A DNA stretch of 18,224 bases from a virus. Its lineage: Duplodnaviria; Heunggongvirae; Uroviricota; Caudoviricetes. The translations under genes were made by a program, and so were the position numbers. Where the stretch lies: IMG/VR virus record IMGVR_UViG_2802429235_000008, one strand, 5' to 3'. The notes under the pieces were generated by a model. The model ran no database searches. It was given only the letters and a program-made list of their open reading frames with translations, and had not been told where the DNA came from. Of the stretch, positions 2,400 to 11,028 are shown piece after piece (the stretch's first letter is position 1; every line of letters starts with the position of its first letter).

Positions 2400-2474
2400 A
2401 TTAAGCCCGCAGCCCACCTTGGCTACTGGCATTCGCTAGTAGCTGGGTCCTTTCCAGCGATCCGGCAGGCTACG

Positions 2475-2486
2475 GGGCGGAAGGCG
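2475..2486. other. cosN: cosN, putative 12-nt cohesive-end core
   Basis: Flanks align to the lambda cos region as I recall it (TACG | 12 nt | CGCGGGTTTTCGCTATTTATGAAAATTTTCCGG). The 12 nt between them here read GGGCGGAAGGCG. Confidence 0.6.
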
Positions 2487-2519
2487 CGCGGGTTTTCGCT
2501 ATTTATGAAAATTTTCCGG

Positions 2520-2641
2520 TTTAAGGCGTTTCCGTTCTTCTTCGCCGTAACCTAATGTTTTTATTTAAAACACCCTATGAAAAGAAAGGAAACGACAGGT
2601 GCTGAAAACGAACTTTTGGGCCTCTGTCGTTTCCTTTCTCT
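2520..2641. promoter_or_regulatory. cosB: cosB: terminase small-subunit binding elements R3, R2, R1 around an IHF-site region
   Basis: CGTTTCC-type R elements: R3 near 2526-2537 (GCGTTTCCGTTC), R2 2588-2599 (GGAAACGACAGG) and R1 2621-2634 (CCTCTGTCGTTTCC). R2 and R1 are part of a near-perfect inverted repeat (2581-2599 vs 2624-2641) with an AT-rich stretch between R3 and R2, as in lambda cosB. Confidence 0.7.
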
Positions 2642-2663
2642 GTTTTGGGCCGTGGAATGAACA

Positions 2664-3183
2664 ATGGAAGTCAACAAAAAGCAGCTGGCTGACATTTTCG
2701 GTGCGAGTATCCGTATCATTCAGAACTGGCAGGAACAGGGAATGCCCGTTCTGCGAGGCGGTGGCAAGGGTAATGAGGTGCTTTATGACTCTGCCGCCGT
2801 TATAAAATGGTATGCCGAAAGGGATGCTGAAATTGAGAACGAAAAGCTGCGCCGGGAAGTTGAAGAACTGCGGCAGGCCAGCGAGACAGATCTCCAGCCA
2901 GGGACTATTGAGTACGAACGTCATCGACTTACGCGTGCGCAGGCCGACGCACAGGAGCTGAAAAATGCCAGAGACTCCGCTGAGGTGGTGGAAACCGCAT
3001 TCTGTACTTTCGTGCTGTCGCGGATCGCAGGTGAAATTGCCAGTATTCTCGACGGGATCCCCCTGTCGGTGCAGCGGCGTTTTCCTGAACTGGAAAACCG
3101 ACATGTTGATTTCCTGAAACGGGATATCATCAAAGCCATGAACAAAGCAGCCGCGCTGGATGAACTGATACCGGGGTTGCTGA

Positions 3184-3209
<26 letters not shown>
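2664..3209 (+). CDS. nu1: Terminase small subunit, 181 aa
   Basis: ATG at 2664. Protein recognised as lambda gpNu1 (MEVNKKQLADIFGAS...), with the N-terminal DNA-binding region and a P-loop-like VLRGGGKG. Length identical to lambda Nu1. Confidence 0.95.
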
Positions 3210-6890
<3,681 letters not shown>

Positions 6891-8607: not shown

Positions 8608-9633
8608 ATGTCGATGTACACAACCGCCCAGCTGCTGGCGGCAAATGAGCAGAAATTTAAGTTTGATCCGCTGTTTCTGCGTCTCTTTTTCCGTGAGAGC
8701 TATCCCTTCACCACGGAGAAGGTCTATCTCTCACAAATTCCTGGACTGGTAAACATGGCGCTGTACGTTTCGCCGATTGTTTCCGGTGAGGTTATCCGCT
8801 CCCGTGGCGGCTCCACCTCTGAATTTACGCCGGGATATGTCAAACCCAAGCATGAAGTGAATCCGCAGATGACCCTGCGTCGCCTGCCGGATGAAGATCC
8901 GCAGAATCTGGCGGACCCGGCTTACCGTCGCCGTCGCATCATCATGCAGAACATGCGTGATGAAGAGCTGGCCATTGCCCAGGTCGAAGAGATGCAGGCA
9001 GTTTCTGCCGTGCTTAAAGGCAAATACACCATGACCGGTGAAGCCTTCGATCCGGTTGAGGTGGATATGGGCCGCAGTGCGGCGAATAACATCACGCAGT
9101 CCGGCGGCACGGAGTGGAGCAAGCGTGACAAGTCCACGTATGACCCGACCGACGATATCGAAGCCTACGCGCTGAACGCCAGCGGTGTGGTGAATATCAT
9201 CGTGTTTGATCCGAAAGGCTGGGCGCTGTTCCGTTCCTTCAAAGCCGTCAAGGAGAAGCTGGATACCCGTCGTGGCTCTCATTCCGAGCTGGAGACAGCG
9301 GTGAAAGACCTGGGTAAAGCGGTGTCCTATAAGGGGATGTATGGCGATGTGGCCATCGTCGTGTATTCCGGACAGTACGTGGAAAACGGCGTCAAAAAGA
9401 ACTTCCTGCCGGACAACACGATGGTGCTGGGGAACACTCAGGCACGCGGTCTGCGCACCTATGGCTGCATTCAGGATGCGGACGCACAGCGCGAAGGCAT
9501 TAACGCCTCTGCCCGTTACCCGAAAAACTGGGTGACCACCGGCGATCCGGCGCGTGAGTTCACCATGATTCAGTCAGCACCGCTGATGCTGCTGGCTGAC
9601 CCTGATGAGTTCGTGTCCGTACAACTGGCGTAA
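8608..9633 (+). CDS. E: Major capsid protein E, 341 aa
   Basis: ATG 8608 (MSMYTTAQLLAANEQKF...); 341 aa; C-terminus ...DPDEFVSVQLA matches lambda gpE from memory. The ORF-track start at 8581 is a GTG inside the terminator. Confidence 0.95.
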   Translation: MSMYTTAQLLAANEQKFKFDPLFLRLFFRESYPFTTEKVYLSQIPGLVNMALYVSPIVSGEVIRSRGGSTSEFTPGYVKPKHEVNPQMTLRRLPDEDPQNLADPAYRRRRIIMQNMRDEELAIAQVEEMQAVSAVLKGKYTMTGEAFDPVEVDMGRSAANNITQSGGTEWSKRDKSTYDPTDDIEAYALNASGVVNIIVFDPKGWALFRSFKAVKEKLDTRRGSHSELETAVKDLGKAVSYKGMYGDVAIVVYSGQYVENGVKKNFLPDNTMVLGNTQARGLRTYGCIQDADAQREGINASARYPKNWVTTGDPAREFTMIQSAPLMLLADPDEFVSVQLA

Positions 9634-9674
9634 TCATGGCCCTTCGGAGCCATTGTCTCTCTGTGGAGAAGTCC

Positions 9675-10073
9675 ATGACGAAAGATGAACTGATTGCCCG
9701 TCTCCGCTCGCTGGGTGAACAACTGAACCGTGATGTCAGCCTGACGGGGACGAAAGAAGAACTGGCGCTCCGTGTGGCAGAGCTGGAAGAGGAGCTTGAT
9801 GACACGGATGACACTGCCGGTCAGGACACCCCTCTCAGCCCGGAAAATGTGCTGACCGGGCATGAAAATGAGGTGGTATCAGCGCAGCCGGACACCATGA
9901 TTCAGGATGCGGCTGAACTGGTCACGGTCGTGGCAATGGTGACGCTGCATACTGATGCACTTCACGCCACGCGGGATGAACCTGTGGCATTTGTGCTGCC
10001 GGGAACGGCGTTTCGTGTCTCTGCCGGTGTGGCAGCCGAAATGACAGAACGTGGCCTGACCAGAATGCAATAA
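9675..10073 (+). CDS. FI: DNA packaging accessory protein FI, 132 aa
   Basis: ATG 9675 with GGAGAAG SD (MTKDELIARLRSLGEQ...); acidic linker (EELEEELDDTDDT); 132 aa as in lambda gpFI. Confidence 0.9.
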   Translation: MTKDELIARLRSLGEQLNRDVSLTGTKEELALRVAELEEELDDTDDTAGQDTPLSPENVLTGHENEVVSAQPDTMIQDAAELVTVVAMVTLHTDALHATRDEPVAFVLPGTAFRVSAGVAAEMTERGLTRMQ

Positions 10074-10449: not shown

Positions 10450-11028
10450 ATGGCCATAAAAGGTCTTGAGCAGGCCGTTGAAAACCTCAGTTGTATCAGC
10501 AAAACGGCGGTGCCTGGTGCGTCAGCAATGGCCATTAACCGCGTTGCTTCATCCGCGATATCGCAGTCTGCGTCACAGGTTGCCCGTGAGACAAAGGTAC
10601 GCCGGAAACTGGTAAAGGAAAGGGCCAGGCTGAAAAGGGCCACGGTTAAAAATCCGCAGGCCAGAATCAAGGTTAACCGGGGGGATTTGCCCGTAATCAA
10701 GCTGGGGAATGCGCGGGTTGTCCTGTCCCGCCGCAGGCGTCGTAAAAAGGGGCAGCGTTCATCCCTGAAAGGTGGCGGCAGCGTGCTTGTGGTGGGTAAC
10801 CGTCGTATTCCCGGCGCGTTTATTCAGCAACTGAAAAATGGCCGGTGGCATGTCATGCAGCGTGTGGCCGGGAAAAACCGTTACCCCATTGATGTGGTGA
10901 AAATCCCGATGGCGGTGCCACTGACCACGGCGTTTAAACAGAATATTGAGCGGATACGGCGTGAGCGTCTTCCGAAAGAGCTGGGCTATGCGCTGCAGCA
11001 TCAACTGAGAATGGTAATAAAGCGATGA
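10450..11028 (+). CDS. Z: Tail completion protein Z, 192 aa
   Basis: ATG 10450 with AAGGGGGA SD; highly basic stretch (RRRRRKKGQR); 192 aa as in lambda gpZ. Confidence 0.9.
   Translation: MAIKGLEQAVENLSCISKTAVPGASAMAINRVASSAISQSASQVARETKVRRKLVKERARLKRATVKNPQARIKVNRGDLPVIKLGNARVVLSRRRRRKKGQRSSLKGGGSVLVVGNRRIPGAFIQQLKNGRWHVMQRVAGKNRYPIDVVKIPMAVPLTTAFKQNIERIRRERLPKELGYALQHQLRMVIKR

Follow-up and report, generated by a model that had tools for sequence, protein, structure and literature searches.

The canonical cohesive end of lambda, GGGCGGCGACCT, is common to phages lambda, 21, 434 and phi80. Across lambda-like cosN sites, differences at bp 7-12 are nevertheless common, the conserved parts being the CG pairs that flank the nicks, the left half of the site, and cosQ (Feiss et al., 2015, PMC4669245). 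N15 and phiD326 are unlike lambda at positions 9 and 12, and Gifsy-1 at positions 8, 9 and 11 (PMC4669245), while the cosN of mEp213/LLS reads GGGCGGCGCGCT (PMC12315714). The site is functionally asymmetric, with G2C costing about 10-fold and the symmetric C11G giving no phenotype, an asymmetry explained by cosB-bound TerS anchoring TerL for the bottom-strand nick; moreover, the yields obtained with lambda terminase are equal for lambda cosN and N15 cosN (PMC4669245). With the helper-packaging dilysogen assay of that study, the N15 mismatch between chromosome ends gave a 4-fold drop. Nicking also depends critically on the spacing between cosN and R3 (PMC9026076). Published tests of tolerance involve one or two substitutions, whereas the allele described here has five, including those at positions 10 and 12 together, the latter adjoining the bottom-strand nick.

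Among these systems, N15 and phiD326 share GGGCGGCGTCCG, with the N15 end experimentally defined, and theirs is a right-half variant ending in CG before CGC, as is the allele described here. The N15 right half, CGTCCG, was confirmed from NC_001901, whose record describes a 12-base 5' extension. The likeness has limits, since N15 differs from lambda at only those two positions, its cosB is simple and its TerL is only about 65% identical to that of lambda, whereas our locus differs at five positions and has lambda's own cosB and terminase. Gifsy-1 and mEp213/LLS, for their part, carry other 6-mers and differ in their cosB and in their head genes. The premise of the initial annotation, that a single cohesive end is common to lambdoid phages, was therefore incomplete, these four documented cases differing within bp 7-12, and the documented variants, together with the tolerance of the right half, largely remove the surprise of finding a changed cosN beside a lambda-type terminase.

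The window, by which we mean the whole stretch of 18,224 nucleotides analysed (IMG/VR record IMGVR_UViG_2802429235_000008), is a standard lambdoid late region. Genes for a P21-type holin, lysozyme, Rz and, on the minus strand, Bor lie upstream of cos, and Nu1, A, W and a portal gene follow it (all by Pfam), succeeded by open frames at the positions of the lambda head and tail genes. Alignment places the start of lambda homology at cosQ, the sequence leftward of it being unrelated to lambda. Between bor and cos are two plus-strand open reading frames (1746-2021 and 2154-2399; 91 and 81 aa) without a Pfam match. Close relatives of the segment from about 1860 to 2444 are few in the phage collection, and of the complete E. 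coli genomes only two extend across it. No complete E. coli genome carries the window unaltered; for 1550-2700 the best match reaches 96.9% over 89% of that interval.

Anatomy of the cos region

The window was aligned to a lambda reference made by joining the right end of J02459 (48428-48502) to its left end (1-260), and to a second reference, phage DE3, whose record annotates a 12-bp "cos site"; both gave the same base-for-base placement. Where lambda has its cohesive end, the window (2475-2486) reads GGGCGGAAGGCG, which differs at cohesive-end positions 7, 8, 9, 10 and 12 (window 2481-2484 and 2486), AAGGCG standing in place of CGACCT, between immediate flanks (...TACG and CGCGGGTTTTCGCTATTTATGAAAATTTTCCGG...) that are the same as in lambda. 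The initial annotation, which had marked the 12-mer with four bases on each side (2471-2490), gave the lambda end accurately and was right both about the five right-half substitutions and about the light divergence around them: the flanks differ from lambda at 14 of 244 positions (5.7%), with R3, R2 and R1 identical and a few substitutions in 2540-2582, the interval between R3 and R2 where a lambda-type cos has its IHF site I1, in the overall alignment. At that flank rate, a 6-mer mismatched at five of its six bases has an expectation of about 9e-4 over the region, so the cluster is not a product of chance. The 12-mer by itself is unremarkable, with 0.22 matches at no more than one mismatch expected in 18 kb; what counts is its position.

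Table 1. Elements of the cos region and the adjoining terminase genes, in window coordinates
Feature	Position	Strand	Remarks
cosQ	2445..2451	+	GGGTCCT; packaging-termination element (role from PMC4669245); exact lambda heptamer at lambda spacing to cosN
cosN, 16 bp	2473..2488	.	CG + 12-bp cohesive-end segment + CG; CGGGGCGGAAGGCGCG
Predicted nicks	2474/2475 (top strand); 2486/2487 (bottom strand)		Between the paired positions; predicted by homology
cosN left half	2475..2480	+	GGGCGG; cohesive-end positions 1-6; identical to lambda
cosN right half	2481..2486	+	AAGGCG; cohesive-end positions 7-12; 5/6 positions unlike lambda
cosN-to-R3 spacer	2487..2523	+	37/37 bp the same as lambda
cosB R3	2524..2539	+	Nu1 (TerS) binding site; AGGCGTTTCCGTTCTT; identical to lambda bp 50-65 (extent from PMC9026076)
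cosB R2	2583..2598	-	Inverted 16-bp R sequence; exact reverse complement of R1; identical to lambda
cosB R1	2624..2639	+	CTGTCGTTTCCTTTCT; identical to lambda
Nu1	2664..3209	+	Terminase small subunit, 181 aa; Pfam Phage_Nu1, E 3e-100
A	3184..5109	+	Terminase large subunit (ATPase and endonuclease), 641 aa; Pfam GpA_ATPase, GpA_nuclease

Of the parts by which a lambda-type cos is recognised, the window has CG-GGGCGGAAGGCG-CG with its left half, a cosQ in register, a complex cosB, and genes of the Nu1/gpA type. The window thus has in common with lambda (J02459) cosQ, the CG nick flanks, GGGCGG, the 37-bp spacer, R3, R2, R1 and the distance to Nu1, and departs from the canonical cohesive end at 5 of 12 positions. 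The pattern is that of a natural right-half variant, the changes being confined to bp 7-12 and leaving bp 1-6 and the CG flanks untouched. An altered nicking symmetry, also raised by the initial annotation, holds only arithmetically, the 16-bp cosN being rotationally symmetric at 8 positions here versus 10 in lambda; the right half is functionally tolerant (PMC4669245).

Recurrence of the allele and its settings

A 40-mer that matches only when the variant half-site is present was located 185 times among 5,426 complete E. coli genomes, 170 of which carry it, as compared with 7,414 places in 4,101 genomes for the lambda allele, which gives the variant a share of about 2.4% of such sites. The variant was further found in PLSDB, in 23 plasmid records (from E. 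coli, Shigella sonnei, E. albertii and E. fergusonii), in 31 metagenome contigs by the same 40-mer search, and in two deposited phage records, YDC107_1 (a Ravinvirus) and PhiR46_1 (PV340565; host ECOR13), which resemble each other in genome size and cos position. An exact 18-mer gave 86 matches in IMG/VR, about 83 of them genuine cos sites; the remaining three were rejected as cos sites, satellite ones included, being GC-rich and devoid of cos features (L138 and L192 on inspection, the third as judged from its flanks alone). A further IMG/VR scan constrained only a 30-mer on the cosB side and left cosN free; with the window and three reference loci added, the variant being present in two of the latter, it yielded 112 lambda, 10 variant and two singleton alleles among the matches listed, and the left half GGGCGG was kept in 123 of the 124. 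Among GTDB species representatives the variant was absent except in Escherichia sp. E1V33. The canonical lambda cos with lambda flanks, in turn, turned up in GTDB assemblies of Raphidiopsis brookii D9, Aeromicrobium sp., Archangium violaceum and an Alicyclobacillus fastidiosus "plasmid" (L130, L131, L132 and L133), where it probably represents contamination with lambda or cosmid DNA.

This recurrence bears out the suggestion of the initial annotation that the site is a natural variant of its lineage. It refutes the other suggestion made there, an assembly artefact at a prophage cos: a sequencing or assembly error, which had been raised as a general possibility only, is hardly credible for an identical 40-mer found in so many independent complete genomes, in plasmids, and in many metagenome assemblies from different projects.

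The allele is not tied to one background. Its left flank comes in at least 20 haplotypes, several of them shared with the lambda allele, and the cosB next to it is of the lambda type, the phage-21 type or a third type. In two loci, L039 (about 2560-3330) and L118 (about 4500-5260), the variant cosN is followed by a chimeric TerS with a lambda-like C-terminus and then by lambda gpA, the DNA-binding N-terminus of this TerS and the R sites, CATGTCGG, being what we take to be phage-21-like. Elsewhere it accompanies a gpA only about 60% identical to that of the window.

Carriage on plasmids is markedly uneven. In complete E. coli genomes, 16 of the 185 variant sites lie on plasmid records, versus 19 of the 7,414 sites with the lambda allele (odds ratio about 37, p about 2e-17). 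One of the carriers, NZ_CP101200.1 (L303, 46 kb), is an N15-like phage-plasmid that combines a protelomerase, a large RepA, SopA and ParB with a lambda-type terminase and head and tail modules. The roughly 37-fold enrichment of the variant on N15-like phage-plasmids is a new detail, for which the type of carrier was inspected in NZ_CP101200.1 only. The literature searched, which did not extend to Vahanian et al. 2017, contained no mention of the 12-mer GGGCGGAAGGCG or its reverse complement in a phage context, only unrelated plant and Streptomyces papers, nor did it include any paper on the PhiR phages. Papers on cos cite what is reportedly a dedicated cosN survey, Vahanian et al. 2017 (Virology 509:140).

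Terminase, cutting and cohesive ends

The Nu1 of the window is identical to lambda Nu1 at 178 of 181 residues (T18I, A75T and L132I being the differences) and its gpA to lambda gpA at 638 of 641 (S268A, V377L and I459V), so that the enzyme adjoining the variant cosN is lambda terminase itself. For a covariation test, 157 gpA sequences downstream of cos were aligned, and within those above 95% identity 54 linked to the variant were compared with 36 linked to the lambda allele. No gpA residue was diagnostic of the allele in this comparison, and the nuclease domain was without any consistent difference; the best associations, N9D and S21A (p about 5e-4), are partial, lie at the N-terminus next to cos, and are best explained by linkage to it. 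The first 40 residues of Nu1, its DNA-binding region, are likewise the same with both alleles. Co-adaptation of the terminase to the allele was accordingly rejected, as neither gpA nor Nu1 has a residue that tracks cosN, and judging from these alignments one and the same enzyme evidently serves both the lambda and the variant cosN.

The T18I change in Nu1 (codon 18, 2715-2717) falls within the recognition helix of the winged-helix domain (residues 17-24), and of the roughly 170 lambda-type Nu1 N-termini sampled no other carries it; binding to cosB could be affected in this prophage, which might then be impaired even if the allele itself is functional. This singleton, and the many defective lambdoid prophages in E. 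coli genomes, would fit a cosN that has decayed in a defective prophage, its five changes being damage that terminase cannot cut, and recurrence in prophages alone is indeed no proof of function. We regard decay as very unlikely all the same. It would leave scattered changes differing from site to site, yet the identical 6-mer is met hundreds of times while the flanks, the cosB type and the terminase next to it vary, and both flanks of cosN are perfectly conserved; the allele is present in a deposited phage with a named propagation host and in N15-like phage-plasmids of about 46 kb with complete virion modules; and the packaging, head and tail reading frames of the window are all open, which also disfavours it.

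Very probably, then, the window holds a functional lambda-type cos that is cut by lambda terminase and whose cosN has, in the half where sequence change is tolerated, an allele that recurs in nature. We infer the nick positions and the function of the allele as the best explanation of the observed anatomy, recurrence and independence from terminase sequence, taken together with the right-half tolerance established in the literature. By this mechanism Nu1, bound to R3, R2 and R1 (with IHF), would position gpA, which would nick the top and bottom strands at the predicted places (Table 1). The bottom-strand nick would be set by the Nu1-R3 anchor and not by the sequence of bp 7-12, and for that reason the same lambda terminase should cut the variant allele. 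The virion would be expected to carry 12-nt 5' overhangs, GGGCGGAAGGCG at the left end and CGCCTTCCGCCC at the right.

Cutting in a shifted register, in which the bottom-strand nick slips 2 nt, onto a different CG step, leaving overhangs of 10 or 14 nt, is an unlikely alternative that the variant itself brings to mind, because it creates the run GGCGCGCGGG, with CG CG CG at 2485-2490; the CG dinucleotide flanking the nick is a conserved local feature, and the terminase endonuclease has low intrinsic sequence specificity. In the published model, however, the nick falls at a fixed distance from the Nu1-R3 anchor, a spacing unchanged in the window, and N15 has the same ...CG|CGC arrangement with an extension of 12 bases in its record. 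Cutting at the usual positions thus appears most likely by analogy with these systems, and the resulting sticky ends would likely be different from those of lambda.

Predicted duplex energies point to what such a difference might entail: -19.0 kcal/mol for the lambda-lambda pair of ends, -18.6 for variant-variant, and -9.5 for lambda-variant, in which 6 bp are paired. Variant ends would thus pair with each other about as stably as lambda ends do, and poorly with lambda ends. As both ends of a genome derive from copies of the same cos, cyclisation should be unaffected, and on this model the only chromosomes to suffer would be those with a lambda cos at one end and a variant cos at the other. 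No contig or record that starts or ends at the variant cosN was found among the phage records, IMG/VR or the metagenome contigs, and cos is internal in both YDC107_1 and PhiR46_1.

Other right halves and the standing of the allele

Wider scans revealed a spectrum of right halves, those among the matches listed being CGACCT, AAGGCG, CGTCCG, GAGCGT, CAGCGG, CGACCG, CAGACG, GAGCGG, AGACCT, CAGGCG, AAGCGT and TGACCT; as the right-half scans were designed to exclude the lambda allele, pooled counts among these matches do not represent frequencies. The sole close neighbour beside a lambda-type cosB among the matches listed is CAGGCG, in GGGCGGCAGGCG, which is one substitution from the window allele and lies beside lambda-type cosB and Nu1 in at least three loci (L366, L398 and L403). 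The AAGGCG allele is therefore not completely isolated, and CAGGCG is, from its sequence, a possible evolutionary neighbour. Our first samples had given the impression of two alleles without intermediates, an impression weakened by CAGGCG and by the spectrum of other right halves.

A8 and G9 of the window allele are shared with Gifsy-1, and with CAGGCG, CAGCGG, CAGACG, GAGCGT and GAGCGG, a distribution that suggests, at the level of sequence, import of AAGGCG by recombination rather than five independent substitutions. Origin by local inversion of CGACCT was also considered, but the match of the inverted form (AGGTCG) is 4/6, was noted by eye, and is within chance, and the idea was dropped.

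The variant 12-mer is hence a real and largely ordinary natural allele of a half-site already known to be variable and tolerant; the kind of variation is familiar, and its extent, five changes out of six, exceeds the published examples. Most of the lambda-type cos sites sampled have one of two alleles, CGACCT or AAGGCG (about 2-8%), with CAGGCG rare. That they form discrete classes of cohesive-end compatibility under the same lambda terminase and cosB, with the AAGGCG class, concentrated in N15-like phage-plasmids, possibly a partial isolation barrier, seems doubtful to us. Were it so, an end of one class should hardly pair with an end of the other, chromosomes packaged from concatemers that are hybrids with a co-resident lambda-type prophage would meet a barrier to productive end-joining or cyclisation, and the right half of cosN would not be simply neutral.

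The practical relevance of the allele is modest. In annotating or engineering lambda-like prophages, cosmids and packaging extracts, the textbook end GGGCGGCGACCT is not to be assumed, given that in complete E. coli genomes GGGCGGAAGGCG is the end at about 2-3% of lambda-type cos sites, and at nearly half of those on plasmid records, and cos finders that look for the exact 12-mer would miss these sites. With five of its six right-half positions changed, the allele puts the freedom of bp 7-12 under an unchanged lambda terminase to a more extreme natural test than any so far, and it would offer a convenient natural substrate for probing the limits of cohesive-end mismatch in cyclisation. Of the other right halves, CAGACG occurs twice in one IMG/VR contig (L311), in two cos copies at 9601-9680 and 10546-10625, separated by 865 nt, that together make an inverted repeat of 80 nt with 98% complementarity, an arrangement that could reflect either a rearrangement or an assembly artefact.
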